64,000 nucleotides of DNA from Squalus acanthias (lineage: Eukaryota), in NCBI GenBank assembly GCA_030390025.1, contig CM059432.1:36086001-36150000 (forward strand). Direction: 5' to 3'. The translations under genes and the position numbers were made by a program. Positions within the stretch are counted from its first letter, which is position 1; each line of letters begins with the position of its first letter. Positions 870-55,427 of this stretch are shown one piece after another. Under the pieces are notes generated by a model. It was given only the letters and a program-made list of their open reading frames with translations, was not told the origin of the DNA and ran no database searches.

Positions 870-3115
870 ATTGTGGAGATGAAGTCCCATCTTCACACTG
901 AGGACACCCTCCATCGTGTTGTGTGGCACTACCACCGTGCTAAATGGGATAGATTCAGAACAGATCTAGCAGCTCAAAACTGGGCATCCATGAGGTGCTG
1001 TGGGCCATCAGCAGCAACAGAATTGTATTCCACCACAATCTGTAACCTCATGGCCCGGCATATCCCTCACTCTACCATTACCATCAAGCCAGGGGACCAA
1101 CCCTGGTTCAATAAGGAGTGTAGAATAGCGTGCCAGGAGCAGCACCAGGCGTACCTAAAAATGAGGTGCCAACCTGGGGAAGCTACACCACAGGACTACA
1201 TGCATGCTAAAAAGCAGAAGCAGCATGTTATAGACAGGGCTAAGTGATCTCACAATCAACGGATCAGATCAAAGCTCTGCAGTCCTGACACATCCAGTCA
1301 TGAATGGTGGTGGACCATTAAACAACTAATGGGAGGAGGAGGCTCCATGAATATCCCCATCCTCAATGATGGTGGAGCCCAGCATGTGAGTGCAAAAGAC
1401 AAGGCTGAAGCGTTTGCAACCATCTTCAGCCAGAAGTGCCGAGAGGATGATCCATATCGGCCTACTCCCGAGGTCCCCACCGTCACAGAAGCCAGTCTTC
1501 AGCCAATTCAATTCACTCCACGTGATATCAAGAAATGCCTGAGCACACTGGATACAGCAAAGGCTATGGGCCCCAACAACATCCCGGCTATCGTGCTGAA
1601 GATTTGTGCTCCAGAACTAGCCGCGCCTCTAGCTAACCTGTTCCAGTACAGCTACAACACTGGCATCTACCCGACAAAGTAGAAAACAGCCCAGGTATGT
1701 CCTGTCCACAAAAAGCAGGACAAATCCAACCCAGCCAATTACCGCCCCATCAGTCTACTCTCAATCACCAGCAAAGTGATGGAAGGTGTCATCGACAATG
1801 CTATCAAGCGGCACTTACTCACCAATAAACTGCTCACTGATGCCCAGTTTGGGTTCCGCCAAGACCACTCGGCTCCCGGCCTCATTGCAGCCTTGGTCCA
1901 AACATGGACAAAGGAGCTGAATTCCAAAGGTGAGGTGAGAGTGACTGCCCTTGACATCAAGGCAGCATTTGACTGAGTGTGGCATCAAGGAGCCCTAGTA
2001 AAACTGAAGTCAATGGGAAATGGGGGAAAACTCTCCACTGGCTGGAGTCATACCTAGCACAAAGGAAGATGGTTGTCGTAGTTGAAGGTCAATCATCACA
2101 GCCCCAGGACATCACTGCAGGAGTTCCTCATGGCAGTGTCCTAGGCCCAACCATCTTCAGCTGCTTCATCAATGACCTTCCCTCCAACATAAGGTTAGAA
2201 ATGGGGATGTTCGCTGATGACTGCACAAAGTTCAGCGCCATTCACAACTCCTCAGATAATGAAGCAGTCCATGCCCACATCCAACAAGACCTGGACGATG
2301 TTCAGGCTTGGGCTGATAAGTGGCAGGTAACATTCGTGCCACAGAAGTGCCAGGCAATGACTATCTCCAACAAGCGAGAGTCTAACCACCTCCCCTTGAC
2401 ATTCAACGGCATTACCTTCGCCGAATCCCCCACCATCAACATCCTGAGGGTCACCATTGACCAGAAACTTAACTGGACCAGCCACATAAATACTGTGGCA
2501 ACAGGAGCAGGTCAGAGGCTAGGTATTCTGTGGCGAGTGTCTCACCTCCTGACTCCCCAAAGCCTTTCCACCATCTACAAGACACAAGTAAGGAGTGTGA
2601 TGGAATACTCTCCACTTGCCTGGATGAGTGCAGCTCCAACAACACTCAAGAAGCTCAACACCATCCAGGACAAAGCAGCCCACTTGATTGGCACCCCATC
2701 CACCACCTTAAACATTCACACTCTCCACCACCGACGTACCGTGGCTGCAGTGTGTACCATCTACAAGATGCACTGCAGCAACTCGCCAAGGCTGCTTCGG
2801 CAGCACCTCCCAAACCCGCGACCTCTTCCACCTAGAAGGACAAGGGCAGCAGAGGCATGGGAACACCACCACCTCCAAGTTCCCCTCCAAGTCACACACC
2901 ATCCTGACTTAGAAATATATCGCCGATCCTTCATCGTTGCTGGGTCAAAATCCTGGCACTCCCTACCGAACAGCACTGTGGGAGTACCATCACCACACGG
3001 ACTGCAGCTGTTCATGAAGGCGGCTCACCACCACCTTCTCAAGGGCAACTAGGGATGGGCAATAAATGCCGGCCTTGCCAGCGATGCCCACATCCCAAAA
3101 GCGAATAAAATAAAA
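870..3115 (+). mobile_element. 5'-truncated, inactivated LINE ORF2 (reverse transcriptase) with 3' UTR and A-rich tail
   Basis: RT motifs YRPISLL, QFGFR, ALDIKAAFD, GVPHGSVLGP, FADD. In-frame stops at 1245, 1680 and 1974 plus a frameshift near 2010. Ends gggatgggcaataaatgcc...aataaaataaaa. Confidence 0.92.
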
Positions 3116-3352: not shown

Positions 3353-3456
3353 TTCTAGTGGAGGTGGAGGTGCGGTCTTTTGGACAAGACTTTAAACTGA
3401 GGTCCCGTCTGCCCTCTCAGCTGGGTGTAAAAGATCCCATGGCACTATCGAAGAAG

Positions 3457-3728
3457 TCATGATGCGGAGATGCCGGTGTTGGACTGGGGTGGACAAAATT
3501 GAGAGGTCGCACAACACCAGGTTATAGTCCAACAGTTTTATTTGAAATCACAAGCTTTCGGATCTATCGATTGCCCCTTCCTCAGGTGAAGTAAATTAGA
3601 TACAGAAAGCTTTGGCGATTCTGTATCTAATTTACTTCACCTGAGGAAGGGGCAATCGATAGCTCCGAAAGCTTGTGATTTCAAATAAAACTGTTGGACT
3701 ATAACCTGGTGTTATGCGACCTCTCAAT
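3457..3728. mobile_element. Penelope-like non-autonomous fold-back element (inverted pLTRs plus tail)
   Basis: 110-bp arms 3498-3607 and 3619-3728 (2 mismatches), 11-nt loop, one-sided tail 3457-3497. 13-bp TSD actatcgaagaag at 3444-3456 and 3729-3741. Confidence 0.85.
3637..3678 (+). ncRNA. Minimal type-I hammerhead ribozyme-like motif (mirror copy on minus strand at 3548-3589)
   Basis: TCAC-CTGAGGA-A-GGGGC-loop-GCTCC-GAAA-GC-TT-GTGA: core boxes, stems I and II, and palindromic AGCT in place of stem III. Confidence 0.65.
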
Positions 3729-5014
3729 ACTATCGAAGAAGAACAGGGGATTTCACTCCAGTGTCATGGCCAATATTTATCCCTCAACGAACATCACTAA
3801 AACAGATTATCTTATTATATTGTTGTTTGTGGGATCTTGCCATGTGCTGCCGCGTTTCCTACATTACAACAGTGATTACACTTATAAGTACCTCATTGGA
3901 TTTAAATGCTTTGGGACATCCTGAAGTTGTGAATGGTGCTATATAAATGCAAGTTCTTTCTTTATAGGATCTTTTTAGTATCTTTACCTCAGCTGCTTAC
4001 ACAGTCGCCCACTGTAACTCATTCTTTCCCATCCCCTATCTCCTCAATCTTCCCTTCCCCCCCTTGACAATCAACAGGCTTTTAAAACCCAAGCATAGCG
4101 TCAACTATTCTATAATGCTTAATTTATCTCACCTTGTCTCCGACTCTTATGCACCTTGGTGTTGTTTAGCACTGTAGGCCTAGGTTTCCTAATTTAAAAA
4201 AACCTTTTCATTTAAAGAAAAAGTTTAGGCTAATGTGAGACAGAAAAGCTCCTTTTGAGAGAAAAAGGGCAGTTTAAGTGTTGCGAGTCTAATCTCTTTT
4301 TTTATTGCTCTCTAGTATTGGCCGCTTTACTGCTGCAAATCCCCCCTCCTCCTCCCCAGGGGGAGGATCTGGGCCTGTAGTGCACACACACCTCTGGACA
4401 TCAGTGGCCTGCTTTGATGTCTGGGCCTAGCTATTGTTAAGCAGGAAGCATCCATCTGTCACTTCAGAAATCAGCCAGGACACCCCGGGGGTGGGGGTGA
4501 GACTTGAATAGTTTACGAGAGGCCGCAGTAAAACGCTGTTTGCCCAATGATCAGGAGAGAGAAGTGTGAGGAGATGGATTTGGGCGTCAAGGAAGCAGCA
4601 GCACCTTCAAAGCAGCTGTGCGATCATCTGCAGTTAAAGGAGAGTGTAGATGAATGACAAGTAGACCCCCAAACCAGTCCGTTTAAAGATTTGAACCTTC
4701 CTCGCAAATGTCCCTGATGGCTCAGTTAGTTAATGTACCACCTAGTCTGGCACTGACCTACACAGACCAGGAAAATCCCAGGCTCGATCCTGGTTTGTGC
4801 TGAGTCAGCTCTCAGCCAGTGCAACAGTAAGGAATCACAAGACAAATACAAATGAGGAAGGCCATTCAGCCCATCTCATCCATCCAGAGAGACCCGAGGG
4901 ACCATGGCACATCCAATTGTTTCTTAAATCCAGGCTGACAGTCCAGTGCAGTACCGAGACAGTTGGATAGCCTGTCAACACTTTCTGTTTTATTTGTTCT
5001 TGGGCTGTGGGCGT

Positions 5015-9420: not shown

Positions 9421-12008
9421 CATGGAGTTTGCCTACTTTATATTAGGCCCTACCTCTGACAGCACTGTACCGCTGTAAAATTACCTTTTAACTGGGCACA
9501 GTTTAAAGGACTGCACCAGATGAAGGAGAAGGTGCACGTGTGAATATGTAAAGGGAGGAAGGGAGGGGCAGGGCCATTGCTGAGTTTGATGGATGAGCTG
9601 TATAGTCTATTCCCTTCTTATTGAACATGTTTTTAAAAGGCTCGCTCTGTATTTCCTGAGTTGGAGCTCAGAGGCTCAGACTGCGGGACTGGGAGGGTGG
9701 GGGTGGAATCAGGCCTTGCACATCAAAGGCACCGAGAATCAAACCAGGCTTAAACACAGGAAACCTAGCCCCCAGGGCCTCAAATAAAACCCGCCTCTTT
9801 AAAGCAACACATCCCTCCACTCAAGTTATAGTACAACAGCTGTTGAAAAACAAATGACATGTTGTATTAATATATTAACAAAATTTACAATTAAATGCAT
9901 ATAAATATATGTTTGTGTTTGTGTGTAAAATGTTAAGGAAGCGAGTTTTATATATATATTAATAATATTGATAATATATTAAAAATCTTACCATCTTTCA
10001 TGTCAACTTTTGTACATTATAAATTCCATATTTTACTTTTTTGTTACATTCATTCTTGGGATGTGGTGTCGCTGGCAAGGCTGCATTTATTGCCCATCCT
10101 TAGTTGCCCAGGTTTGGTACAACTGAGTCACTTGCTCGGCCACTTCAGAGGGCAGTTAAGAGTCAACCACGTTGGTGTGGGACTGGAGTCACATATAGGC
10201 CAGACTGGGTAAGGCCACTTTCACTGATGCCAGCTTTTTTAGTTCCAGATTTTTAAAACTGAATTAAAATTCTCAAACTGCCATGGTGGGAGATGAGCTC
10301 ACAGTTCTCTGGATTATTAATCCAGTCACATAACCAGTAATGCATTTATGTTTGTGTGTGCAGATGCTGGGTGAGAGGAGGATTAGGCTAGGCTGTTGTG
10401 CCTTCCGTGGTTGAATAGCCTGCTGACACCCACTGACTCTAGGCTCATGCCATGAGTGAAGAATGTGCAGTAAGGAGAGGTGATTGAGGGCTGTCTGTAC
10501 CTGTGCAATCCCTATCCCAGCAGGAGTGGCGAGGAGCAAACTGTCATAGAATTCCAAGCCCTCGTACAGGTATCTGAGAGGAACAAAATTAGTAAAATGC
10601 TTAATCAATTGAAAAACAAAAACACTTCCTGTTCAGCATAATCCAGGCTGGGACTTCAGTGCAGTACTGAGGGAGTGTTGCTCTGTCGGAGGTGCTGCTC
10701 CAAGGGTGATGTGTTAAACTGCCAGTTTAGGTGTGTTGGCCAACATTCCTCCCTCAACCAACACCACCAATAAAACAGATTAACTACTCATTCATCTCAT
10801 TGCTGTTTGTGGGATCTTGCTATGAGCAAAATGGACGCTACACTTACCCGCAATTTCATTCATGCCTGGGATCTTTCTGATACCTCATAAGCTGCTGCTA
10901 TGTAAAGTAAGTTCTTTCTCTCTCTTTCAAAATACTACGTGTGCTGAAGCAGTCCGAGGCTTAGCTGGTGTGCCCACCATTGCTGAATAGCTTGCTGCCG
11001 CTCACTGTCTCGACTCACACATGAAGATTGGCCGCTTGGGTTCCATACCCATGGAGCTGTACTCCTGCAAGGGGTCAATATCTTCAGGGAAGTAGGGGTA
11101 TGATTAAAAAGAGAAGACAGCTCACACTTTGCACTGTTGCTTTGCCTTCTAGAGTTCAAACACTCCCAAAGGGAGTGACTGCAACTGGTGTTTTTTTTAA
11201 GACAAGTTCACCCAAGTCTCAGCTCAAGTCTGCAAACAGTGTCCAAAATAAAAACAAATAATTGACAGTTCAGGATAAATCTGAAATAAACGTACACAGC
11301 AAGTGTGACAGGTTAACATTTAGGGAATGTCCTGCTCTAGTCAGCCCAAATAATAACCTGCCTTTCTCTGGCTATCCCAATGGGTAAAGGCACCATCTAA
11401 TCAGGTATAAAGCCACACAGACCGGGGAGGGCCTGGGTTTGAGTCCTAGTCTGTGCTGAGTTAGTTGCAACTGGGTTAGGAAGGAGTCAACCAGCTGGGA
11501 TCTCACTCCTGATCTCTATCCAGTGACATAACAACAAGAATAGGCCATTCAGCCCCTCAAGCCTGTTCCGCCATTCAATTAGATCATAGCTAATCTGTAC
11601 CCCAACTCCATTTAGCCGTCTTTGCTCCATATGCCTTGATACCCCTGCCTAACAAAAATCTATTGATCTCAGTCTTGAAAATGTATATTGTCCCAGCATC
11701 CACTGCCTTTTGGGGTAGAGAGTTCAAGATTTCCACTACCCTTAGTGTGAAAAAGTGCTTCCTGATTTCACTTCTGAATGGCCTAGCTCTAATTTTAAGA
11801 TTATGTTCTCTTGTGCTGGTTCCCCCACCAGAGGAAATGGTTTCTCCATTTCTACCCTATCAAGTCCCGCGATGCCCTGCTGGAACCTGTGCTGATGTTG
11901 GGTGAGGACAAGATCGGGGGTGGCTGATGTGGATCCCACCCTATTGCCATGTAGATTCCAAGCTCACGTCTGAGGTGAGGCAGGGCAACCTAACCCTACC
12001 TAACACAA

Positions 12009-12212
12009 TCATGATGCGGAGATGCCGGTGTTGGACTGGGGTGGACAAAAGTGAGAAGTCGCACAACACCAGGTTATAGTCCAACAGTTTTATTTGAAAT
12101 CACAAGCTTTCGGAGCGCTGCTCCTTCGTCAGGTGAAGGCTTCACCTGACGAAGGGGCAGCAGCTCCGAAAGCTTGTGATTTCAAATAAAACTGTTGGAC
12201 TATAACCTGGTA
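12009..12212. mobile_element. Penelope-like fold-back element, short copy, with hammerhead-like motif (12142-12179 on +)
   Basis: Same tail as the 3457 copy. About 70-bp arms 12068-12138 and 12140-12211 around a 1-nt centre. Flanking duplication taacacaatcatg at 12001-12013 and 12213-12225. Confidence 0.82.
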
Positions 12213-13439
12213 TAACACAATCATGGGAGCACCATTACTACACAGACTCCAATGGTTCAAGGAAAAGGCCCACCACCACCTTCTCAAGGGCAACTAGGGG
12301 ATGGGCAATAAATGCCATCCTTGTCAGTGACATCCACGTCCTGAGAATAAATTTTAATATACTCAGCACCCATTGAACTGCACCCTGGGGAACTTATCCA
12401 CAGAAAGCCAGTAGCTCCTGGAGAGGAGGGGAGAGAAAAATAGATAAACTGAATGGAGGAGGATTTAAAACATTTCTAATTGTGAACAAGAAAACTTTTC
12501 TATTTCTTGAAATTGTGCTTGGCTCAGTCGGTAGAATTCTCGCCTCGGAGTCAAAAGGTGTGGGTCCAAGCCTCACTCCAGAGACTCGGGCACATAATCT
12601 AGCCTGAAACTTCAGTGCTGTACTGAGGGTGTGTTGCACTGTCGGAGATGCCGTCTTTCAGATGAGGCGTTGAACTGAGGCCCCATCTGTCCTCTCAGGT
12701 GGGTATCTGAGCTCCTCTAATTCTGGCCTCTTGCTTATCCCTGATTTTAATCATCCACCATTGGTGGCCATGCCTTCAGCTGCTTAGGCCCTAAGCTCTG
12801 GAATTCCCTCCCTAAACCTCTCTGCCTCTCTTTCCTCCTTTAAGATGCTCCTTAAAACCTACCTCTTCATCTGCTCTAATATCTCCTTATGTGGCTCGGT
12901 GTCAAATTTTGTTTTGTAACGCTCCTGTGAAGCGCCTTAGGACATTTTACTATGTTAAAGGCACTATATAAATGCATGCTCTTTCTTTTCATCCTCTTCC
13001 TAGTCTTCATGGGCATAAGTAATGCAACATAGCAGTTTGATACTTTAAAGCTTTAATAGTTCAACAACTTAAAATTGTAGGCTTGTGCGGTGTGGCTTTA
13101 AGAGCCCAAATTCTGGAACGGGGTTATTATCTCCTGGGGAGTTTTGATACATCAACTCTCAGCCAATCCTAATGAAAGTATGCTACCCCCCCCCCCCCCC
13201 CAACCCCCCAGCACCACGTGGGGTAGAGCTTTTACTCCCTCCCTCTCTGTGGCTTTTTTCAATAAAAAAGTAATTGAAAAGTAGCAAAGTGATTGAGTCA
13301 TTGAGAGAGACAGAGAGTAAGACGGAAAGGGAGAGACTGAGATACAGAGCCAGAGAGGGGGGAAAAACTTGGGAGAAAGGAGAGAACGGAGTGGAAAACC
13401 AAGGGCAAACGGAAAGGAAACAAAGTGTTAAAGTGAGTG

Positions 13440-14714: not shown

Positions 14715-15180
14715 GAAAAAAAGACTTGCATTTATATAGCGCCTTTCCTGTCCTCTGGATGTCCCAGGGCCCTTTGCAGCCAATGAGGCTCTTTTGAAGT
14801 GTGGTCACTGTTGTGGTGTAGGGGTCACGGCAGCCAATTTGCACGCAGCGGGTTCCCACGGATGGCAGTGTGGTAATTGACCAGATAATCTGTTTTAGTG
14901 ATGTTGATTGAGGGATACATATTGGCCAGGACACTGGGGAAAACTCCCCTGCTCTTCATCGAAATAACGCCATGGGATCTTTTATGTCCACCTGAGAGAG
15001 CAGACAGGACCTCTGTTAACGTCTCATCCGAAAGACAGCACCTCCGACAGTGCAGCACTCCCTTAGTACTGCACTGGAGTGACAGCCTAGATTTTTGTGC
15101 TCAAGTCACTGGAGTGGGGCTTGAACCCCCAACCTTCTGATTCAGAGGTGAGAGTGCTACCGCTGAGTCACAGCTGTCAC
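14715..15180 (-). mobile_element. Full-length DeuSINE
   Basis: tRNA-like head near 15180, Deu core and 3' tail, all in reverse orientation. Confidence 0.88.
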
Positions 15181-15874
15181 TTTGAAGTGCTGTAACCTAT
15201 AGGGCTACAGACCAAGAGCCGGAAAGTGGGATTAGGCTGGATAGCTCTTTTTCAGCCGGCACAGACATGATGGGCCGAATGGCCTCCTTGTGTGCCATAA
15301 ATATCTATGATTCTATGATTACTAGTCCAGGCACTACGGTTGGACTTAGTGCCTCTGGAGTGTGGGGGAGAATCAGTGTTGGTTGCTACTCCCTACTCAC
15401 TATCTATTGACACATCCATGCGCCCCCCCCACCCACCCCCCTCCCTCCGCTGGCAAGTGCAAGCCTGTGGGCATCAGGTGAGGAGAGGATCGGGCTCTTC
15501 TGTGATAGCTTCTGCAGTAAAATAGCCTGTCGATACTCACTGCCTAGTCATGTATGGTGTTTGGTGCCTGTGGAATTGCATCTCTGGAATGTGTCAACAA
15601 CTTCCGGGGGCCGGTGGGGGGAAGGAGATCGAAAAATCCTTCAGGCCATGACTCCTCTCATGGTTTCCTTGAGCCTGTGTGAAATGGGTGGATGATTTAT
15701 TTTTCACCAATTAATTTAAAATTGTAATCATTGCAACGTGTATTTATTTTTTAAACGTTTCCATAAGTGATTGAATTCTACAATGGAGAGTGAGATTCCC
15801 GAGTCCCTGACACAGATCCCATCGGCCTGTCGCTATGGGAGTCATGAGACGCTCAAACTCTTAGTCTTGTCTTT

Positions 15875-16330
15875 TGGCTCAGTGGGTAGCACTCTCACCC
15901 CTGAGTAGAAGGTTGTGGGTTCAAGCCTTACTCCAGAGACTTGAGCACCTAATCTCGGCAGACACTTCAGTGCAGTACTGAGGGAATGCTGCACTGTTGG
16001 AGGTGTCTGCTTTCAGATGAGACGTTAAACCGAGTCCCAGTCTGCCCTTTCAGGTGGACATAAAAGCTCCCATGGCACTGTTTGAAGAAGAGCAGGGGAA
16101 TTCTTCCTGGTGTCCTGGTCAATATTTATTCTTCAACCAACATCACTAAAACAGATTATCTGGTCATTTATCTCATTGCTGTTTGTGGGTGTTTGCTTTG
16201 TGCAAATTGCCTGCCGTGTTTCCCTACATTACAACAGTGACTACTCTTCAAAGAAGTTCATTGGCTGTAAAGCACTTTAGGACATCCTGAGGTTGTGAAA
16301 GGCTTTATATAAATGCAAGTTCTTTCTTGT
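15875..16330 (+). mobile_element. Full-length DeuSINE
   Basis: A box tggctcagtgg, B box gggttcaagc, Deu core, tail tatataaatgcaagttctttc. Confidence 0.88.
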
Positions 16331-16417
16331 CTTGCTTTTTCACTAGCCAGTGGAAACCTACGGTCTGCTCGCAGGGCTCCCAGACCGATTTTGGACAAAG
16401 AGGCATTTTGAGTGCAA

Positions 16418-18098
16418 TCATAGAATCGTAGAATGGTTACAGCACAGAAGGAGGCCATTCGGCCCGTCGAGCCCGTGCCGGCTCTCTGCAAGAGCACTTC
16501 AGCTAGTCCCACTCCCCCACCCTTTCCCCGCTACCCTGCAAATTTGTTTCCTTCAGGTCCTTATCCAATTCCCTTTTGAAAGCCACAATTGAATCTGCCT
16601 CCACCACCCTTTCAGGCAGTGCATTCCAGATCATAACCACTCACTGCGTAAAACATTTTTTCCTCATGTCACCTTTGGTTCTTCTGCCAATCACCTTAAT
16701 TCTATGTCCTCTGGTTTTCGACCCTTCGCCAATGGGAACAGTTTCTCTCTATCTACTCTGTCTAGACCCCTCATGATTTTGAACACCTCTATCAAATCTC
16801 CTCTCAACCTTCTCTGCTCTAAGGAGAAAAACCCCAGCTTCTCCAGTCTATCCACGTAACTGAAGTCCCTCATCCCTGGAACCATTCTTGTAAATCTTTT
16901 CTGCACCCTCTCTAAGGCCTTCACATTCTTCCTAAAGTGCGGTGCCCAGAATTGGACACAATACTCCAGTTGAGGTCGGACCGGTGTTTTATAAAGGTTC
17001 ATCATAACTTCCTTGCTTTTGTACTCTATGCCTCTATTTATGAAATTGAGAGGTCGCACAACACCAGGTTATAGTCCAACAGTTTTATTTGAAATCACAA
17101 GCTTTCGGAGCTATCTTCTTGCTCCTTCCTCAGGTGAAGTAAATTAGATACAGAATCGCCAAAGCATATATAGATAGAGAACAAAGCATGTGTACCTTAC
17201 AATTGCAGACCACTAAATTAAATCATCCTGACTATCTGCCGAGGTGTGATAAAGTTAATCAAGTCTGATTTAATTTAGTGGTCTGCAATTGTAAGGTACA
17301 AATGCTTTGTTCTCTATCTATATATGCTTTGGCGATTCTGTATCTAATTTACTTCACCTGAGGAAGGAGCAAGAAGATAGCTCCGAAAGCTTGTGATTTC
17401 AAATAAAACTGTTGGACTATAACCTGGTGTTGTGCGACCTCTCAATTTTGTCCACCCCAGTCCAACACCGGCATCTCCGCATCATGACCTCTATTTATGA
17501 AGCCCAGGATCCCGTATGCTTTTTTAACCGCTTTCTCAACCTGCCCTGCCACCTTCAATGATTTGTGCACATATTCCCCCAGGTCTCTCTGTTCATGCAC
17601 CCCCTTTAGAATTGTACCCTTTAATTTATATTGCCGTTCCTTGTTCTTCCTACCAAAATGTATTACTTTGCACTTTTCTGCGTTAAATTTCATCTGCCAT
17701 GCGTCCGCCCATTCCACCAGCCTGTCTATGTCCTCTTGAAGTCTATCACTATCCTCCTCACTGTTCACTATACTTCCAAGTTTTGTGTTGTCTGCAAATT
17801 TTGAAATTGTGCCCTGTACACCCAAGTCCAATTCATTAATATATATCAAGAAAAGCAGTGGTCCTAGTACCGACCTCTGGGGAACACCACTGTGTACCTT
17901 CCTCCAGTCTGATAAACAACTGTTCACCACTACTCTGTTTCCTGTCACTTAGCCAATTTTGTATCCATGCTGCCACTGTCCCTTTTAATCCATGGGCTTC
18001 AACTTTGCTGGCAAGCCTAATTATGTGGCACTTTATCAAACGCCTTTTGGAAGTCCATGTACACCACATCAACCACATTGCACTCATCAACCCTCTCA
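16418..18098 (-). mobile_element. CR1 LINE fragment (RT to 3' end) carrying a fold-back insertion
   Basis: Minus ORFs with VVYMDFQKAFDKVPH, SGVPQRSVLGP, KFADNTKL, RPQLEYCVQFW. Confidence 0.92.
17045..17487. mobile_element. Penelope-like fold-back element, long copy; hammerhead-like motifs at 17354-17396 (+) and 17095-17137 (-)
   Basis: 183-bp arms 17043-17225 and 17266-17448 (1 mismatch seen), 40-nt loop, tail ending catcatga. 14-bp TSD cctctatttatgaa at 17031-17044 and 17488-17501. Confidence 0.88.
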
Positions 18099-27528: not shown

Positions 27529-28245
27529 ACAATTGGACACAATACTCCAGTTGAGGTCGGACCGGTGTTTTATAAAGGTTCATCATAACTTCCTTGCTTT
27601 TGTACTCTATGCCTCTATTTATGAAAATGAGAAGTCGCACAACACCAGGTTATAGTCCAACAGTTTTATTTAAAATTACGAGCTTATTTATTATCTATTA
27701 TCTATTTATGAAGCCCAGGATCCCGTGTGCTTTTTTAACTGCTTTCTCAACCTGCCCTGCCACCTTCAACGATTTGTGCACATGCACCCCCTTTAGATTC
27801 TATCCTTTAGTTTATATTGCCTCTCCTTGTTCTTCCTACCAAAATGTATCGCTTCGCACTTTTCTGCGTTAAGTTTCATCTGCCACGTGTCCGCCCATTC
27901 ACCAGCCTGTCTATGTCCTCTTGAAGTCTATCACTATCTCCTCACTGTTCACTGTACTTCCAAGTTTTGTGTCATCTGTAAATTTTGAAATTGTGCCCTG
28001 TACACCCAAGTCTAAGTCATTAATATATATCAAGAAAAGCAGTGGTCCTAGTACTGACCCCTGGGGAACACCACTGTGTACCTTCCTCCAGTCTGATAAA
28101 CAATCGTTCACCTCTACCCTGTTTCCTGTCACTTAGCCAATTTTGTATCCATGCTGCCACTGTCTCTTTTAATCCATGGGCTTCAACTTTGCTGGCAAGC
28201 CTATTATGTGGCACTTTATCAAACGCCTTTTGGAAATCCATGTAT
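27529..28245 (-). mobile_element. CR1 LINE fragment closely related to 16418-18098, with a collapsed fold-back relic at 27626-27700
   Basis: [31 protein letters not shown]. One arm of the fold-back family lies between tctatttatgaa repeats. Confidence 0.88.
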
Positions 28246-29961: not shown

Positions 29962-30410
29962 AAAAAGAAAGGCTTGTATTTATATAGCGCCTTTCACAAC
30001 CACAGACATGCCAAAGCACTTTCCAGCCAATGAAGTACTTTTTGAAGTGTAGTCACTGTTCTAAAGTTGGAAACGCAGCAGTCAATTAGCGCACAGCAAG
30101 CTCCCACAAACAGCAATGTGATAATGACCAGATAATCTGTTTCAGTGATGTTGATTGAAGGATAAATATTGGCCAGGACACCAGGGATAACTCCCTTGCT
30201 CCTCTTCTAAATAGTGCCATGGGATCTTTTACATCCACCTGAGAGAGCAGACGAGGCTTCTGTTTAACGTTTCATCATAAAGATAACACCTCTGACCGTA
30301 CTGCACTGGAGTGTCAGCCTAGATTTTTGTACTCAAGTCTCTGGAGTGGGTCTTGAACCCACAACCTTCTGACTCAGATGAGGCTGTTACCAACTGAACC
30401 ACGGCTGACA
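29962..30410 (-). mobile_element. Full-length DeuSINE
   Basis: Reverse complement of the family consensus seen at 15875 and 31630. Confidence 0.88.
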
Positions 30411-31326
30411 CAAGGGATAAGGGGGAGATTAAGGAAAACCACGTCTAGGGTTGAGGACTGGAGACATGAGGGTAGGTGGATACTCTGGAGTTTTGTTTCA
30501 TTACCTTTTGGATGAGGCAGTATCTAGTCAGAACTTTTCCCTCAGGAGATTAAATGTGTGAGTAGAGTCCATGATGGGGTAGAGTACAGAGGCAATGGAA
30601 GGAAATTAAATGGATTAGTAGAGTTCATGATAGGGGAGATTGTAGAGGGTTTTGGGAGGAGATAAAATTGGTGGGTAGAGTCCATGATAGAAGGGACTGT
30701 ACAGGGTCTGTTGGAGTGGGAACAGTAGGCTTTTTCTTGTCGCATTATGTCCCTCTGTCCTATTCCGAATGTGTGTTGTGTTCCTCCCCCACTCGTCCAA
30801 CCCTCTTTCCCAGTGCAGCTCCATAGAGAATTTCTGGATATTGAAAAGTGCCCTGATCCATTTTTATTACTCTGTCAATTTTTTACCCTCCTGTCTCTCA
30901 CTGGGGTCTGGCTTCCAGGGCACCTTGCCACTGTGGCCATTCTTCTTGTGTTAGCAGGATGTTTGACCATGTAGGGTGTTATGTTCTTTACTCGACGTCC
31001 ACCCATGCACTGCCCAGTAGAGGTCACCCAATAGCGATCATCATGGGAATTGGAGCTGGCTCTTCATTGCCTGAACCTGGGGCACTTGGACCTGGTTATA
31101 TCCTGGAGAGCGGGTAAGCATTGGGCGAGGACAGGATCCAGCTCAAGTGTGATGCCTTCCACTGCTGAATGCCTGCACTCACTGTCGAGGCTCAGACATG
31201 AAGAATGGCCCCTTGGGTGTGGATCTGTAACCCTGGCACCCTTTGGCATCCTCAGGAGGCGAGACTGAAATCTCCCCCCTGCCCTTGCTGGACAGTCTTG
31301 CATAATCTTCATTTCTTGATCCTCAG

Positions 31327-31459
31327 GTGCTGGCGGATGACTCCTGTCCCAGCGGACGATTTACATCGCAGGACGAGTGCTGTGACCTCTGCCCCGAAGG
31401 TCATGGGGTTATTAAAGAGTGTAACACCACCAACACCCAGTGTCAGCCTTGTGAGGATG
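31327..31459 (+). CDS. NRADD: p75NTR-like receptor exon 2 (CRD1): VLADDSCPSGRFTSQDECCDLCPEGHGVIKECNTTNTQCQPCED
   Basis: cctcag/ acceptor and G/gtaagt donor, 133 nt, phase 0 to 1. TNFR cysteine spacing as in p75 CRD1. Confidence 0.92.
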
Positions 31460-31629
31460 GTAAGTGTCTGGAGAAGATCAGTAATCTCTCAAAATAACAT
31501 AGTCTCCTATCTTGCCCCACCCCTCAATTCACCCCTCTGAATTTTTCTTCTCAATCTCCGAATGTATCATTCCACCTGCTCATCCTCCTGCCTCCTATAT
31601 TGAATCATCTCATATATTTTTGTTTTAAG

Positions 31630-32075
31630 TGTCAGCCATGGCTCAGTGGTAGCACAATTGCCTCTGAGTCAGTAGATTGTGGGTTCAAGCCCCACTTCAG
31701 AGACTTGAGCACATAATCTAGGTTGACACCGTACTGAGGGAGTGCTGCACTGTCGGAGGTGTCGTCCTTTGGATGAAACGTTAAACTGAGGCCCCGTCTG
31801 CTCTCTCGGGTGGATGTAAAAGATCCCAAGGCACTATTTTGAAGAAGAGCAGGTGAGTCCTCTGTGTCCTGGCCATTATTTATCCCTCTACCAACATCAC
31901 TAAAACAGATGATCTGCTCATTTATCTATTTCATGTTTGTGGGATCTTGCTGTGCCCAAATTGGCTGCCACATTTCCCTACATTACAACAGTGACTATGC
32001 TTCAAATGTACTTATTTGGTGTAAAGCACTTTTAATGTCGTGAAAGACACTCTATAAATGTAAGTCCTTTCTTTC
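31630..32075 (+). mobile_element. Full-length DeuSINE
   Basis: gtcagccatggctcagtggtagcac head through tataaatgtaagtcctttc tail. Confidence 0.88.
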
Positions 32076-32196
32076 TACTTTCTAACTGCATGAGTTAGTG
32101 CCTTTAACGGCGGGCGGGGCGGGGGATTAAATTTGGGACACTCTTGGATTGTACTAATTCCATTTCCTCCCCATTTTTTTTAAAAATTTGTTGCAG

Positions 32197-32550
32197 GTGT
32201 GACCTTCTCGCCCAGCGCTGGCCTCACCCGCTGCCAGCTGTGCTCGAGCTGCCCCGACAAGATGGAGGTGGGAATCCAGTGTTCAGCCACGTTTGACACC
32301 CAGTGCCAGTGCGTGGAAGGGTACTACTCGCGGTCCGGCGGCAGGCGATGTGTGCCGTGCACCGCCTGCCAGCCGGGCTTCGGGGCGGTGGTGCAATGCC
32401 ACGGGGACCAGGATGCCGTGTGCCAGTCGTGCCCCGAGGGCTCCTTCTCCGATAAGTCGAGCAGCTCGCAACCGTGCACGGCGTGTCGCGTCTGCGGCGA
32501 AGATCATTTTGTGTTGAAGTGCGAAGCGACCTCGGACACGATCTGCCGGA
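32197..32550 (+). CDS. NRADD: p75NTR-like receptor exon 3 (CRD2-4)
   Basis: ttgcag/ acceptor and A/gtaagg donor, 354 nt, phase 1-1. GVTFS..CQLCSSC..CQCVEGYY..CVPCTACQPGFG..CPEGSFSD..PCTACRVC..CEATSDTIC. Confidence 0.95.
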
Positions 32551-32759
32551 GTAAGGCCTGCTCCTGACATTCCAATGATCTTTTCTCTCCAATATTTTCT
32601 CCTGAAGGCTCTTCAGTCCTGCTGGGCTGCACCCCCCCCCCCCCCAAGAAACTCTCCACTGTGATTTTTTTTTAATATAGAGAAACTCAGATGTACAGAA
32701 AGCCCACAGTACAGGACGCCAGCACAGTTGCAAAGAGTAAAGGAGAATCGTGGACTATT

Positions 32760-33380
32760 CTAGCAGAGTAGGAGGCCATTCGGCCCATTGTGCCTGTGCC
32801 TGCTCTCTCTGATACAATAATAACCATTGCCTAACAAAAAATCTATCGATTTCAGTCTTGGAAGTTTGAGCCAACTCCCAGCATCCGCAACCTTTTGGGA
32901 GAGGGAATTCCAGATTTCCACTGCCCATTGTGTGAAAAAATTCTTCCTGATTTCACTCCCAAATGGCCTAGCTCAGCGGTTCCCAACCTTTTCCTTCATG
33001 CGGACCACCAGCCGTTTAAAAATTGCTTCTGCGGACCACCAGCCGTTTAAAATTTTTTTAACAGCCTATGGCCGACGGGAGTCAAACTTATATATTTTTT
33101 TTCACGGACCACCTGCAGTACCCTCGCGGACCACCAGTGGTCCGCGGACCACAGGTTGGGAAACGCTGGCCTAGCTCTAATTTTAAGATAATGTCCCCTG
33201 TTCTTGATTCCCCCATCAGAGGAAATAGTTTTTCTGTTTCTACCCTATCGAATCCTTTTAACATTTTAAACACCTTGATCAGGCCACCCCTCAATCTTCT
33301 ATACTCCAGGGAATACAAGCCAAGTTTATGCAACTGATCCTCATAATTTAACCCTCTAAGCCTGGTATCATTCTGATTTT
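32760..33380 (-). mobile_element. CR1 3' fragment with nested MITE
   Basis: LHKLGLYSLEYRRLRGGLIKVFKMLKGFDRV on the minus strand. Confidence 0.85.
32974..33168. mobile_element. hAT-Charlie/Buster-type MITE
   Basis: TIRs cagcggttcccaacct / aggttgggaaacgctg. 8-bp TSD gcctagct at 32966-32973 and 33169-33176. Repeated subterminal gcggaccac motifs. Confidence 0.9.
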
Positions 33381-33713
33381 TTGTTTTTTTTCCCCAGAGA
33401 AAAGAGCCCCAGCTTGCTCAGTCTTTCCTGATAGTAGTATCCTCGCAATTCACATAAACTGGAACTAATCCAGTCTAATCCCATTGCCCTGCCCTTGCCC
33501 CATATCCTTTTATATTATTCCAGTTCCCTTTTAAATGATAACCTCAGCCTCGGTAGCCACTTTTGGTAAAGAAATCCATGTTCTTGTTTCAGCTCTAGCA
33601 TCTAGTAATTATTTTCCTGCCCTGCCATTTGTTAATCTTGGCATTGGTTGCAGTGACTTGGATACACAATGGATCTAAAACGTGGTTTTCATTCCCTCCC
33701 GTCTCCTGTTTAG

Positions 33714-33921
33714 ACAAAAGTTCACTGGTACCGAAGAGACCACAGGTCGAGCCAATGAAGGACGACGCCAAGTTCATGACCTCCTTGGAACCCGAGTCCA
33801 GCACTGTGATGGGGGCCATCAACTTCACCGCCTATGACACAGGGAAGAACATCATTCCGGTTTACTGCTCCATCCTTGCAGCGGTCATCGTGGGACTTGT
33901 AATCTATGTCACTGTGAAATG
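33714..33921 (+). CDS. NRADD: p75NTR-like receptor exon 4 (stalk and transmembrane helix NIIPVYCSILAAVIVGLVIYVTVK)
   Basis: tttag/ acceptor and TG/gtgaat donor, 208 nt, phase 1 to 2. TM signature IPVYCSILAAV of the p75 family. Confidence 0.95.
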
Positions 33922-34611
33922 GTGAATTTTACATCTCAGTAACTGCAAATGAAGCAAATGCTCTTTATATTTTGTTGTTGTTTTACTTCCTCCTCAGAAA
34001 ATGAGGGAAAGTCAGCGCTCAGTGTAAGATCGAGCAACGTAGGCCACAAGGCTCCAGCTTTGATCCCCGGTCTGTCCTGAATTAGCTGATCTCACCCAGT
34101 TGGGACTCAGCAAACCCTCCAAAAGAAGAGGAAGGAGAAGACAGGAAGGGAGAGGGGAAGAGATATGAGGAAGGGAAAAGAAGAAGGGAGAGGAGAAGAG
34201 AAAAGAGATGGGGGAGGCAGTAAGAGAAAACTGGAAAGGAGAGGGGAAGAGAAAAGGGGAAGGGGAGAAAAAATGTTTCACTAATAAATGTAGTTTGATG
34301 ATCCTACATGTGGTTCTTGCTGACTGGCCTGATTGCTCGCCTTGTCCGTTGCCTGTCCCACATCCACCGTGCTCTGTCCCCTGGTATCCTATTGTCCTCA
34401 CGCGCTGCCCTTCACGGGCTACAACCCACCTCTTTTCCCCCTCCCCTGCCCCCAACCCTCCAGTTGTTGGCCACTCCCATATTTTGACACTGCTGCAGTT
34501 TCCGCTCTCACTCTTGCCGTCTCACGCTCTCTAACTCTTTCTTGCTCTCTAACTCTTTCTCGCTATCTCTCGCTTTCACTCACCCACTCTCTCTCACTAT
34601 TACTCAGCACT

Positions 34612-34750
34612 GTCTTTCTCTCACTCACTTACTTTCTCTCACTCACTTACTTTCTCTCACTCACTTACTTTCTCTCACTCATTTACTTTCTCTCATTCAC
34701 TTACTTTCTCTCATTCACTTACTTTCTCTCACTCACTTACTTTCTCTCTC
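34612..34750. repeat. 18-bp tandem repeat (tttctctcactcacttac)n, about 7-8 copies
   Basis: Directly visible; gives the spurious (LTYFLS)n ORF. Confidence 0.9.
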
Positions 34751-34808
34751 ACTTACACTCGCTCTCACTCACACTCGCTCTCACTCTCATTCTTTTCTCT
34801 CCCTACAG

Positions 34809-34951
34809 CTGGAACACATGCAAGCAGAAGAAGCAGCTGGCGAAGGCACGAGCTGGTGAGCTCGACGTGGGACCCGAAGGTGAGAAGCTGCACAGTGACA
34901 GTGGAGTGTTTGTCGACACACACAGCCTACATGAACCACAGCTCAGTAAAG
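34809..34951 (+). CDS. NRADD: p75NTR-like receptor exon 5 (juxtamembrane): CWNTCKQKKQLAKARAGELDVGPEGEKLHSDSGVFVDTHSLHEPQLSK
   Basis: ctacag/ acceptor and G/gtacgt donor, 143 nt, phase 2 to 1. PEGEKLHSDSG is p75-like; KCW..KQ..QLAKAR is NRADD-like. Confidence 0.95.
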
Positions 34952-35459
34952 GTACGTCCCACTCCGGCAGCGAGCGTTGACTGTTCCATGGGAACCTCAT
35001 TATCTCACTCAGCTGCCCGTGGGAGCCCCTTGTTATCTCGGCTGCCTATGGGAGCCCGAAAGTGCTTGCAGATTATTCGACTCCTGGGCCATCACAGCTA
35101 AGCCTGATTCTGTTCCCAGCACACACGTTACAACAGGGGTGGAGAGTTGGATGGGGGATTTAACGGGTGGAGAGTTGGAAGGGGGATTAATGCCTGGGTG
35201 GACCCAGCGTAGGTCATGCCACTGGTGGGAGCCAGGAGAAGGGCTGGTTCCCTGCTTTCTTGACTATGGAGATGTCAGGTTGAAGAATGAATGAATAAGG
35301 GGGTGAAAATGGTAGGTTTAAAAGTAAAGGGTGTGTAATCAACATTTCAGGAACTTGCCCTCTCTGGATTGGGTTCTGCTATTGGGGAAGATGTTCCACT
35401 TTTTGTCATTGGTAATGTCCCCTTCTCCCCGCTCTCTTTCTTTCCTCCCCCCCCCTCCA

Positions 35460-35675
35460 AATCCCAGAATACCTTCTCATGACCCCACAAGTCATCAAAA
35501 CCCTCAGCGGTTATTCATTCCCAGGTATCTGTTGTTCTTGCTATAAACACCCAAACCCCTCGATTAGATTCCAACCTATAACTCATTCCCAGGAATCTGC
35601 TATTCTCGTTATAAACCACCCGAATACCTCGATTACATTCCAGCCTGTAACTGACTCCCAGATACCTGTTCTTCT
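35460..35675. repeat. Degenerate tandem repeat, about 68-bp unit, about 3 copies
   Basis: tcccag..atctg..ttct..tataaac..cctcgatta.attcca.cct.taact recurs near 35518, 35586 and 35655. Confidence 0.7.
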
Positions 35676-35767
35676 GTCTGTTAATTTCTGGCATCTATTT
35701 GGTGCAATGTTGCAGTTCCGGTATTGACCACTAGTTCTCTCCCTCTCTCTCTCTCTCTCTCCCTCAG

Positions 35768-36075
35768 CTGTTCGCGCTGACCCACCCCTTTACAGCAAAC
35801 TCCCACTGCAGAAACGGGAAGAGGTCGAGCGGCTGCTTGGCAGCCAGGGTGCCAACCGGGCCGACTGGCGCAACCTGGCGCACCTCCTGGGCTACGACGA
35901 GGAGCGCGTGGCCACCATTGGCCGAGGGGAGGACCCGGCCCACACGCTGCTGTCTGACTGGTCGATGAGGGACGGCGCCAGCTTGGACGTGCTTTGCAAG
36001 GCCTTGGGGAGGATGGAGAGGGACGACGTCGCAGAGCGTCTAAAACCGGAGCCGGCCGTGACCTCTGTGGTGTGA
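35768..36075 (+). CDS. NRADD: p75NTR-like receptor exon 6 (death domain and PDZ-binding TSVV, stop TGA)
   Basis: (ct)n ccctcag/ acceptor. LYSKLPLQKREEVERLL..DWRNLAHLLGY..PAHTLLSDWS..LDVLCKALGRMERDDVAERL..TSVV*. All six exons total 1182 nt, i.e. 393 aa in one open frame. Confidence 0.95.
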
Positions 36076-38404
36076 CGGAAAAGCCAACATCCGCCGTCAA
36101 CCTTTTGCGCATGAAAGACTTCGATCCGCTTACAGACAAAAGGGGGTCACTCAGACTCAAAAGTGCGGCTGGGTCTTTTAAATTTATTTAAAAAGAAAAC
36201 CTCTTGACTGTAACTGGGACACGTGAGGCAATCAGTTGATTGTGTGGGAATTGGGATTCTTGCCTTTGGCCCACACCTGACGATGCTTCATCAAACGTGT
36301 GGGGGAATTTTTTTTCTTGATTTTTAATTATCACACATCCTGCGCACGATTACACGGGCCGCTCTGTATTTACTGGTTTCTTTGTTTGCTCACTTCCTCT
36401 TCTTGTAGCTGCCGACTCTTGCTGTGGATTCCTTCGGCGCCCACCCTCGGCTGCCTGGCCAAAGTGCCCGTTCTTTGTCTGGGCCAGCAACTGTCGGCGG
36501 GATGTTCAGCTTAGAGTGGCATCTCACCCAAGCCATTCCTCTCCTCCGTGTACAAAATCGGGTGCAGACACTTTCTAGTAGGGGAGGGGTATGTCTCTGG
36601 ATAGTAAGGGAATGCTCTTTTTTTGGAGTGGGGAAAGGAGGAAGAAGTCGAACTGCAGGAAGCCATTCTGGTTTGGGTCTCCTTACCACCAAACTGGATC
36701 CAGCCAGTTAACATTGTTTACTGGGCTTCTGGATTGGCTGTCCAGCAGTCCTGATCATACCCCTTGTCCCTCAGTGCATATGGGCACTCCCTGTTGGTGT
36801 CATCCCTAACTTGTAAATCAGGCTTGTATGGTTCAAGGGCTTCACACTCAAAATGGCTGCCAAGGTTGCCCATAAAATGGCTGCCCACAGCAAGAAGAAG
36901 TCATAACAGCAAGTGTGGCCAGACTGAACAAGAACTATCAGCAGCTTTGTGATATTTTTTTTTATGCATGAGAGTTTTTCTTTTGGATTGCAACTCAATT
37001 CTCAAACACTTAAGTTCCCTTGATGGCTCAACTGGACCGCAAGTCTATGCTTTAACTGATCCAAGTCAAGGGAGCCGGAATGATGTTACATTTGGCATCA
37101 GCCCACCTAGGTTAAGGAAGGGGAAAATCAACTGGTGTTCCAGTCCCTCACTGCTATCCAGTATCCTCTGTTAGAATATGCATCAGTTGGATATTGGGTG
37201 CGGGTATTATTGGCTGTGACCCCTACGTTACAATACCTTACCAAGACGTAGATAGGCTCATACATGAAAAATGGTCATTTGGGTGCGGTTTGAGGGGAAG
37301 GTGTACAGAGAGGGTTGGTGCCTGTGTGGAACGGTTTGACAAGGGTTACCACCTTCAGGAGAGGAGGGGAGAACATTGGGCCCAAAAAAATCAAAAGAAA
37401 AACTCTGACCTATGTGTCACTCTACTTTTGAAAACACAATTTATTGGGGCATGGATATGTTTGTGCATGGAGTGGCGGGCTGTTGTAAATTGTTAGTATC
37501 TCTTCAGAGCCCAGATTGAAATCTCAGCCTGCAGTAGGTGCAAGTTTCCTCGGTCCTATGTGAAATGAGTTTGCAAGTGTCTCATCCCAGTTCCTAGTGG
37601 ACAAACAGCATAATACTACTCCCAAATTGGAACTCATACAACTGTGGGACAGTGTACATAAGAGAACGGAACGAGAACATAGAATCTTCCAAGGGAAAGT
37701 TCTGTATAAATGTTCCCTGATTCCCCAAAGACAATCAAGCACGAGGCACTGATGGCGGCTGGTGTAGGAAGTAGAACTTGAGATCCTTGGTTGACATTCA
37801 GCCCAAAGGAGATTTTGGGAGCACTTTTGAGGGAGCTTCACTCTGCCTGTGCTATAGGTAACTTGAGAGTGCTTCACTGGGTATCTAACCCATGTTTGAT
37901 GCTGTCCCTGTGGCCAAAAGCTGTCCAGTGCTGAGCATTGACTCCCCCACCTTGATGGGCACAAAATTCTGACAATCCAACTAAAGGAAGTCAGGGCAGA
38001 AAAAGTTGCCAGATCAATCAAAATGGCTGCCACATTAACTAAAATGGCAGCCTATATCCAATATTGTGCCGCAATACTAATTATTTCTTGTCTTCATGCC
38101 AATTTGTTGAGTCAAATTGTTACCTATGTTTGTATCGTTTTTTGTTTTTTCAATAAATACAATACCCAGTGGGTCAGAATAGGTACAATATCCCAGAGAT
38201 TTTGAAAAGAGGAGGAATTGTCAGCTTTGGCTGATGCTTTTTCTGGAACTTTCTCTTTTTGTACATAAAGAAATGAAGAATGGGCTTTTCTGCTCTGGTG
38301 TTGTTGCAGACAGTTTGACCTTCACCTCATTGTGCTGTCATTGCATAATTGTGTCCTACAAAAAAATTTATATCTTTAAAAAAAATCACTTTTATGTTAT
38401 GCCA

Positions 38405-50062: not shown

Positions 50063-52124
50063 AGGGAGAGAGCGAGCGAGCGGGGGGAGAGAGAGCGAGC
50101 GAGCGAGCGTGGGGGGGATAGAGATAGCGAGCGAGCGTGGGGGGGATAGAGATAGCGAGCGAGCGGGGGGGGGATAGAGATAGCGAGCGAGCGGGGGGGG
50201 GATAGAGATAGCGAGCGAGCGGGTGGGGGATGGCAGAGAGCGAGCGGGGGGGGGGAGAGAGCGAGCGAGCGAGCGGGGGGGGAGAGAGCGAGCGAGCGGG
50301 GGGGGGCGGGAGGGGCGAGAGAGGGCGGGAGCGCGGGAGGGCGAGAGAGGGCGGGAGGGCGAGAGCGGGCGGGCGAGAGCGGGAGGGCGAGAGCGGGCGG
50401 GCGAGGGCGGGAGGGCGAGGGCGGGAGGGAGCGAGGGCGGGAGGGAGCGAGGGCGAGGGCGGGAGGGAGCGAGGGCGAGGGCGGGAGGGAGCGAGGGCGA
50501 GGGCGGGAGGGAGCGAGGGCGGGAGGGAGCGAGGGCGAGGGCGGGAGGGAGCGAGGGCGAGGGCGGGAGGGAGCGAGGGCGAGGGCGGGAGGGAGCGAGG
50601 GCGAGGGCGGGAGGGAGCGAGGGCGAGGGCGGGAGGGAGCGAGGGCGAGGGCGGGAGGGAGCGAGGGCGAGGGGCGGGAGGGAGCGAGGGCGAGGGCGGG
50701 AGGGAGCGAGGGCGAGGGCGGGAGGGAGCGAGGGCGAGGGCGGGAGGGAGCGAGGGCGAGGGCGGGAGGGAGCGAGGGCGAGGGCGGGAGGGAGCGAGGG
50801 CGAGGGCGGGAGGGAGCGAGGGCGAGGGCGGGAGGGAGCGAGGGCGAGGGCGGGAGGGAGCGAGGGCGAGGGCGGGAGGGAGCGAGGGCGAGGGCGGGAG
50901 GGGGCGAGGGAGGGGGCGAGGGCGAGGGCGGGAGGGGGCGAGGGCGAGGGCGAGGGCGGGAGGGGGCGAGGGCGAGGGCGAGGGCGGGAGGGAGCGAGGG
51001 CGAGGGCGGGAGGGAGCGAGGGCGAGGGCGGGAGGGAGCGAGGGCGAGGGCGGGAGGGAGGGAGAGGGAGGGCGGGAGGGAGCGAGGGCGGGAGGGAGCG
51101 AGGGCGAGGGAGCGAGGGCGAGGGAGCGAGGGCGAGGGAGCGAGGGCGAGGGAGCGAGGGCGGGAGGGAGCGAGGGCGAGGGCGGGAGGGAGCGAGGGCG
51201 AGGGCGGGAGGGAGCGAGGGCGAGGGCGGGAGGGAGCGAGGGCGAGAGGGAGCGAGGGCGAGGGCGGGAGGGAGCGAGGGCGAGGGCGGGAGGGAGCGAG
51301 GGCGAGGGCGGGAGGGAGCGAGGGCGAGGGCGGGAGGGAGCGAGGGCGAGGGCGGGAGGGAGCGAGGGCGAGGGCGGGAGGGAGCGAGGGCGAGGGCGGG
51401 AGGGAGCGAGGGCGAGGGCGGGAGGGAGCGAGGGCGAGGGCGGGAGGGAGCGAGGGCGAGGGCGGGAGGGAGCGAGGGCGAGGGCGGGAGGGAGCGAGGG
51501 CGAGGGCGGGAGGGAGCGAGGGCGAGGGCGGGAGGGAGCGAGGGCGAGGGCGGGAGGGAGCGAGGGCGAGGGCGGGAGGGAGCGAGGGCGAGGGCGGGAG
51601 GGAGCGAGGGCGGGAGGGAGCGAGGGCGAGGGCGGGAGGGAGCGAGGGCGAGGGCGGGAGGGAGCGAGGGCGAGGGCGGGAGGGAGCGAGGGCGAGGGCG
51701 GGAGGGGCGAGGGCGGGAGGGGGCGAGGGCGAGGGCGGGAGGGAGCGAGGGCGAGGGCGGGAGGGGGCGAGGGCGAGGGCGGGAGGGGGCGAGGGCGAGG
51801 GGCGGGAGGGAGCGAGGGCGAGGGCGGGAGGGAGCGAGGGCGAGGGCGGGAGGGAGCGAGGGCGGGAGGGAGCGAGGGCGGGAGGGAGCGAGGGCGAGGG
51901 CGGGAGGGAGCGAGGGCGAGAGGGAGCGAGGGCGAGGGCGGGAGGGAGCGAGGGCGGGAGGGCGAGGGCGGGAGGGCGAGGGCGGGATGGCGAGGGCGGG
52001 AGGGCGGGAGGGGGAGGGCGAGGGCGGGAGGGCGAGGGCGAGGGCGAGGGCGGGAGGGCGGCGAGGGCGAGGGCGGGAGGGGCGGCGAGGGCGAGGGCGG
52101 GAGGGCGGGGAGGGCGAGGGCGAG
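50063..52124. repeat. About 2-kb G/A-rich tandem repeat, main unit gagggcgagggcgggagggagc (22 bp)
   Basis: Directly visible; almost no T on the + strand. Confidence 0.97.
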
Positions 52125-52324
52125 NNNNNNNNNNNNNNNNNNNNNNNNNNNNNNNNNNNNNNNNNNNNNNNNNNNNNNNNNNNNNNNNNNNNNNNNNNNN
52201 NNNNNNNNNNNNNNNNNNNNNNNNNNNNNNNNNNNNNNNNNNNNNNNNNNNNNNNNNNNNNNNNNNNNNNNNNNNNNNNNNNNNNNNNNNNNNNNNNNNN
52301 NNNNNNNNNNNNNNNNNNNNNNNN
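52125..52324. other. Assembly gap (200 N, true size unknown)
   Basis: Run of exactly 200 N. Confidence 0.99.
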
Positions 52325-55204: not shown

Positions 55205-55427
55205 GTGACTCTTTGAATGTGGCGGAGGTGTTTGACCCTATTGCCAATCGATGGGAGCGGTGTCAAGAGATGACCACGTCCCGGAGCCGTGTGGGCGTGG
55301 CCATGGTGAACGGGCTCTTGTACGCGATAGGCGGGTTCGATGGGCAGTCGAGGTTGAGTACGGTGGAAGTTTACAACCCGGAGATGGACACGTGGACTAA
55401 AGTGGCCAGCATGAACAGTAAGCGCAG
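55205..55427 (+). CDS. KLHL18: KLHL18 exon (Kelch 1-2): [20 protein letters not shown]...ASMNSKR
   Basis: tttgcag/ acceptor and AG/gtagga donor, 223 nt, phase 1 to 2. Kelch GG..Y..W pattern. Confidence 0.95.

Follow-up and report, generated by a model that had tools for sequence, protein, structure and literature searches.

What are the three small hairpins that lie in this window of vertebrate DNA (the whole stretch of 64 kb that was analysed), and how were they made? The original prediction saw in them a distinct non-autonomous family with ties to Penelope-like elements (PLEs). We consider it very probable that the hairpins are extremely 5'-truncated insertions of an endonuclease-bearing (EN+) PLE, in which the 3' terminal repeat (pLTR) alone was copied, two times in head-to-head orientation. 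That they are stumps of a PLE at all can be said with still greater confidence.

Fold-back copies and their insertion sites

The window contains LINE fragments, many SINE-like repeats, and receptor and Kelch exons. The receptor exons (31300-36100, + strand) are of the NGFR/p75 type, with cysteine-rich repeats, a TNFR_16 transmembrane domain and a death domain, and Kelch-repeat exons were found at 55087-55428 and 62760-63152, also on the + strand. An inverted duplication (16-504 / 885-1379), with arms of 214, 181 and 95 nt that are 90-97% complementary, lies at the 5' end of a LINE whose reverse transcriptase (RT) is located at 1683-3049. Moreover, SINE-like repeats form inverted pairs, 0.9-1.9 kb apart, at 14826-16630, 30069-31977 and 59996-61352. 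Using ARAGORN, we found no tRNA genes in the window.

The three fold-back copies have arms of 110, 71 and 183 bp, much as originally predicted (110, about 70 and 183 bp), and carry a tail on one side only (Table 1). The tail, announced as about 40 nt long, indeed measures 39-41 nt in all three hairpins; in copy 2, however, ~59 nt remain as an unpaired overhang because the tail-less arm ends about 20 nt early. Each copy turns around at a different point, and the absence of an ORF could be confirmed, since all three frames of the sense end are interrupted when read from an ATG. Folding of copy 1 gave z = -30 compared with shuffles. In addition to what had been described before, we identified hammerhead ribozyme cores in the arms as well as a fourth copy that consists of a single arm (27624-27685). 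A profile search of the window with nhmmer returned these seven arms and one insignificant match (E 0.92), and thus no further family member.

All four copies are bordered by exact target site duplications (TSDs), which are 13, 13, 14 and 12 bp long in copies 1-4, respectively. The chance expectation for an exact duplication of 12-14 bp at both ends is 1e-5 to 7e-7 per copy, and lies below 3e-6 for each of the three hairpins. The TSDs of 13-14 bp that had been proposed for the hairpins are exact, with the reservation that in copy 2 the duplication overlaps the end of the tail by 5 nt. The host of each hairpin is another repeat, and paralogs of these repeats within the window show the target only once (displayed for four SINE, three LINE-end and one CR1 paralogs).

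Long inverted arms, a missing ORF and flanking duplications are also what a MITE, or a foldback DNA transposon with long terminal inverted repeats, would offer. The sign named beforehand for a MITE was a fixed arm length together with fixed short TSDs, but the arms range from 71 to 183 bp and the TSDs from 12 to 14 bp. Furthermore, the 41-nt overhang at one end means that the termini are not inverted repeats, the arms contain a hammerhead, and the single-arm copy has a TSD of its own. Hence, a DNA transposon can hardly be considered. Perfect palindromes are a known read artefact, and no listed public contig bridges the turnaround of copy 3. An assembly artefact from fold-back reads is nevertheless very improbable, as the arms differ at one or two positions per copy, the target, duplicated exactly around each copy, occurs once in the paralogs of the host repeat, and the loops hold true element sequence that is missing from the other arm.

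Table 1. Features of the four copies (positions in the window; TSD, target site duplication)
Feature	Position	Strand	Length	Remarks
Copy 1, whole	3457-3728			arms 110 bp, 2 mismatches, 11-nt loop
Copy 1, left TSD	3444-3456		13 bp	within SINE-like repeat
Copy 1, tail	3457-3497	-	41 nt
Copy 1, tail-bearing arm	3498-3607	-		hammerhead core 3552-3585, one stem II mismatch
Copy 1, loop	3608-3618	+		10/11 nt are element sequence extending the tail-less arm
Copy 1, tail-less arm	3619-3728	+		hammerhead core 3641-3674
Copy 1, right TSD	3729-3741		13 bp
Copy 2, whole	12009-12213			arms 71 and 72 bp, 1 mismatch and 1 indel, 1-nt centre
Copy 2, left TSD	12001-12013		13 bp	last 5 nt common to tail end
Copy 2, tail and tail-bearing arm	12009-12138	-		hammerhead core 12104-12132
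Copy 2, tail-less arm	12140-12211	+		outer end ~20 nt short; hammerhead core 12146-12175
Copy 2, right TSD	12213-12225		13 bp
Copy 3, whole	17043-17487			orientation opposite to copies 1 and 2; 183-bp arms, 1 mismatch, 40-nt loop
Copy 3, left TSD	17031-17044		14 bp	in RT-coding region of minus-strand CR1-type LINE
Copy 3, tail-less arm	17043-17225	-		hammerhead core 17099-17133
Copy 3, loop	17226-17265	-		upstream element sequence extending the tail-less arm; 4-bp stem and 4-nt bulge at turnaround
Copy 3, tail-bearing arm	17266-17448	+		hammerhead core 17358-17392
Copy 3, tail	17449-17487	+
Copy 3, right TSD	17488-17501		14 bp
Copy 4, left TSD	27614-27625		12 bp	same CR1 site as copy 3, in another CR1 copy
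Copy 4, lone tail-less arm	27624-27685	-	62 bp	subfamily differs
Copy 4, filler	27686-27700		15 nt	short repeats of target end
Copy 4, right TSD	27701-27712		12 bp

Marks of Penelope-like elements in the arms

A minimal type I hammerhead core is present in each of the six hairpin arms, giving six matches where 0.04 are expected, a number that none of 100 shuffles reached. Read in the orientation that puts the tail 3', six of the seven arms show a palindromic helix III remnant after the core, while the arm of copy 4 is too short for a core. Stems I and II formed in all three sense arms that were folded, with a stability not above that of shuffles (z -0.35 to -1.2). Searching Rfam gave no matches at the gathering score in the window, and the hammerhead families were absent around copy 3 at E values up to 10; six weak Rfam matches around copy 3, to unrelated families, were discarded. 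In copy 2 (12104-12175), the arms differ twice within the hammerhead stem and loop II. Since one of these differences is the very letter that separates copies 1 and 3, the two arms may stem from two RNA templates.

Cervera and De la Pena described a minimal type I hammerhead in the pLTRs of PLEs, with pairs of such hammerheads 100-700 bp apart on opposite strands in Schistosoma (PMC4209133). As far as the available part of that paper goes, the cores found here share with it the type I architecture, a 4-bp stem I, one unpaired base before stem II, a G-C closing pair and a palindromic two-base helix III remnant, and differ from it in stem II, which has 5 bp in the present arms. Shark was not found in the section of its supplement text that was searched. 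Judged from the sequence, the hammerhead is an independent mark of PLE ends in these arms, its cleavage being predicted, and it strengthens the assignment to PLEs that had been made earlier from arms and tail.

The overall architecture points in the same direction. According to the portions available of three papers, an inverted 5'-truncated copy and a one-sided tail of 30-40 nt are typical of PLEs (PMC8557442, PMC3846280, PMC6155905). The closest counterparts are insertions of the EN+ PLEs Pen2a/Pen2 in Adineta, for which excerpts describe a head-to-head inverted 5'-truncated copy, an optional 30-40 nt tail on one side and a TSD, together with a palindrome at the inverted junction and no poly(A) end (PMC3846280; scheme in PMC8557442). 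Unlike in these insertions, both copies are cut down to the pLTR here and no ORF lies between them, and the TSDs are 12-14 bp long compared with 8-10 bp in the rotifer examples given there (PMC3846280).

A further comparison is offered by PAc, a Poseidon-type PLE of Anolis carolinensis, whose protein nicks and extends both strands, and whose tail is bounded by two start sites of reverse transcription (Frangieh et al. 2024, PMC11167929). In the passages available from that study, a stem-loop lies close to the start site, to which a 9-bp stem between the pLTR (arm) and the tail corresponds here (window 17410-17487, + strand). The ATT found at the arm/tail boundary of PAc is likewise present in copies 1 and 3. 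One difference is that the ORF of PAc starts at hammerhead stem II (PMC11167929). By its pLTR, the present element may belong to either the Poseidon or the Neptune clade. Within the same stretch of copy 3 (17410-17487, + strand) the tail shows a pyrimidine run ending in CAG, and the tail itself ends at ATG. One may speculate that the full element has a splice acceptor and the beginning of its ORF there.

A coding PLE as the source is suggested by the hammerhead, the tail and the architecture. Among 139 ORFs of the window (stop-to-stop, at least 85 aa, three low-complexity regions left out), none matched a GIY-YIG family of Pfam. The same ORFs gave five RVT_1 matches, and the two that were inspected are LINE-type by their motifs. 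Exact-pattern scans with two pLTR motifs in viral, metagenome and prokaryotic collections had no matches in six of six cases.

Stumps of a longer element

All arms nest within a single sequence. Between copies there are 4-6 substitutions plus indels over ~135 positions, and they belong to different sequence subfamilies. We mapped contigs from 4 of 24 public runs, using one arm of copy 3 with its loop, tail and right flank as the query; five RNA runs of small share were left out, and contig depth was not read as copy number. In runs X1, X7 and X6 (organisms A and B), 12, 4 and 3 contigs, respectively, extend beyond position 17265 with one agreed sequence, and therefore the template was longer than the longest copy. 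Beyond the end of the tail at 17485 the flanks are mixed (agreement 0.39 among 61 contigs in X1), as would be expected of a true terminus with many insertion sites. Tailed as well as tail-less ends join flanks in public contigs. Run X7 may be an RNA run, from which no transcription is deduced. Run X21 (organism D) contributed 17 reads only, some of them on the element end, and the best public run covered 0.85 of the sampled words, which is compatible with copy 3 being present or absent.

A longer template and the different subfamilies argue against the distinct non-autonomous family that had been proposed, and we read the copies as truncated. The hairpins are stumps of a longer element, not units moving as hairpins; a short non-coding master element, and not a coding one, might nevertheless have given rise to them.

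Would a family of hairpins, retrozyme-like or a SINE-like derivative of a PLE, transcribed as a whole and mobilised by a PLE protein, explain the data as well? None of the copies has an ORF, and non-autonomous PLE derivatives do exist (PMC8557442; bioRxiv 10.64898/2026.07.22.740005, both available in part). Animal non-LTR retrozymes, as presented in the accessible text of the latter, are also non-coding, bear a hammerhead and are related to PLE pLTRs. However, they are head-to-tail tandem units, whereas the present copies are head-to-head, of variable length, and have a tail and a TSD. No retrozyme-type array was among the 23 tandem-repeat rows of the window, and no partial head-to-tail tandems were seen in it. 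Two backward joints found among the public contigs (17436 to 17393 and 17442 to 17316) could reflect such tandems or another kind of joint. The final ~65 nt of the pLTR have a much greater summed contig depth than the part upstream, which speaks for such a family at first sight, but the step coincides with the divergence of subfamilies at 17380 and is no measure of copy number. Moreover, the turnarounds differ in three of three copies and the nested arms belong to one sequence continuing beyond the longest of them, and in a transcript of the hairpin the ribozyme and the tail-proximal stem would be trapped in a long duplex. We thus regard a family that moves in hairpin form as improbable.

Pooled over the copies, the two arms differ at 5 of 365 positions. 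By this measure from sequence the copies are young relative to their host repeats, not necessarily active, and arm conversion can lower the divergence. Slow substitution rates in sharks would put a divergence of this size at millions of years.

Proposed order of events at insertion and a possible target preference

Copies 1 and 3 are informative as to the loop, and in both it is part of the tail-less arm; copy 2 is uninformative. For copy 3, loose contig ends on both sides of the turnaround (17265 and 17266) indicate that the whole 40-nt loop extends the tail-less arm. Stumps of a PLE could also arise from one tail-primed cDNA that snaps back on itself, without a second priming. This would be the simplest source of near-equal arms, the centre of copy 2 is a perfect palindrome around 1 nt, and self-priming on an antisense template has been proposed for PLE palindromes in the available part of PMC3846280. 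A simple snap-back of this kind would, however, extend the tail-bearing arm. The loops do the opposite, which excludes it for copies 1 and 3, and copy 4 has a tail-less arm alone, so that snap-back is an unlikely origin of the stumps. The idea that the hairpin is built at insertion agrees with the three different turnarounds, while the part of it that invoked self-priming from the tail-primed strand is contradicted in copies 1 and 3.

A loop in the tail-less arm fits priming from both target nicks, in line with the activity of the Anolis PLE protein on both strands and its two start sites around the tail (PMC11167929). In copy 4 the tail-less arm lacks a mirror image and is closed by target-end filler, which indicates that the target itself can prime a tail-less cDNA. 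At the turnaround of copy 3, the last four bases are paired to sequence farther upstream, with a 4-nt bulge in between, and adding the next two family bases from public contigs the match would reach 6 nt. This suggests fold-back priming, followed by a slip or a small deletion. The turnaround of copy 1 shows no clear microhomology. In three more joints of public contigs the loop sequence is connected to sense pieces whose first positions are 17320, 17423 and 17456. These resemble further turnarounds, and in one of them the short piece is the tail; it should be borne in mind that the choice of reference favours such joints. None of the 15 joints listed (of 17) carries the mark of a strand change, though many hairpins across the genome would predict such joints; short contigs may limit their number.

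The 5' inversion of L1 arises by twin priming, in which both target strands prime cDNA and the products are joined internally, so that non-overlapping parts of the RNA become inverted. Compared with twin priming in L1, the same 3' end was copied twice here, and a hairpin results.

From these few copies, with the polarity of the loop known from two, we somewhat favour the following order of steps. The GIY-YIG nuclease of the element would nick both target strands, 12-14 nt apart. Each nicked 3' end would then prime a cDNA, one at the outer start site, giving a tailed product, and one at the inner, giving a tail-less product. The tail-less cDNA would stop after ~50-220 nt, fold back via a few paired bases and copy itself or its twin into a sense strand. 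Finally, this sense strand would pair with the tail-bearing cDNA, and repair would seal the ends.

Copies 3 and 4 occupy one and the same target site, each within a separate copy of a LINE, which from its RT motifs we take to be of CR1 type. Comparing the 62 positions of copy 4 with copy 3 shows 5 differences, and as two of the five are common family alleles in public contigs, the two look like independent insertions. Their left LINE flanks (16965-17044 and 27546-27625) are identical over 80 nt, and the right flanks differ at 20 of 349 positions (P ~0.009); gene conversion or a conserved stretch may account for the asymmetry. A third CR1 copy is truncated just beyond its empty target site by a purine-rich tandem array of ~2 kb with period 22 (50064-52400), which adjoins the only gap of the window (200 N).

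Of 15 joints listed among the 17 in public contigs, 11 link the element to LINE flank, and 8 of these 11 fall at 17485-17492. The latter come from organisms A and B, with five or more distinct junction sequences. Under a uniform model such clustering has a probability of ~2e-8, a value that overstates the case, since the rows do not represent independent events and some loci may be duplicated. In the clustered joints the tail-less end sits where copy 3 has its tail, so that either nick can take either end. The CR1 site loosely resembles the arm/tail boundary of the element itself. The targets of copies 1 and 2 lack the CR1 site, and any preference is therefore not strict. Taken together, a hot spot at one CR1 site is reasonably probable. 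In the parts of the literature at hand, PLEs are described as favouring AT-rich or microsatellite DNA, and a real CR1 hot spot would add a sequence preference to PLEs. We found no literature on a preference of PLEs for the CR1 site or on the family of these copies, in a search that had most subscription papers, Repbase and Dfam outside its range.

Overall, the family is an ordinary one, since its architecture and its ribozyme have been published before, and its value is as material on PLE insertion. The formation of inverted repeats and one-sided tails in PLEs is stated as unresolved in the available parts of two papers (PMC8557442, PMC11167929). We tentatively propose, though with some doubt, that the stumps record an intermediate of PLE integration, in which a dimeric enzyme primes cDNA at each nick, the tail-less cDNA is the one to fold back and the other cDNA supplies the tail; in addition, the nuclease would favour one CR1 site that resembles the element's own pLTR/tail boundary, with either strand receiving either end. 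Very short copies with clean TSDs show which arm came first and where the target was cut. If the proposal is true, thousands of such copies would make the formation of inverted repeats and one-sided tails in PLEs testable by counting.
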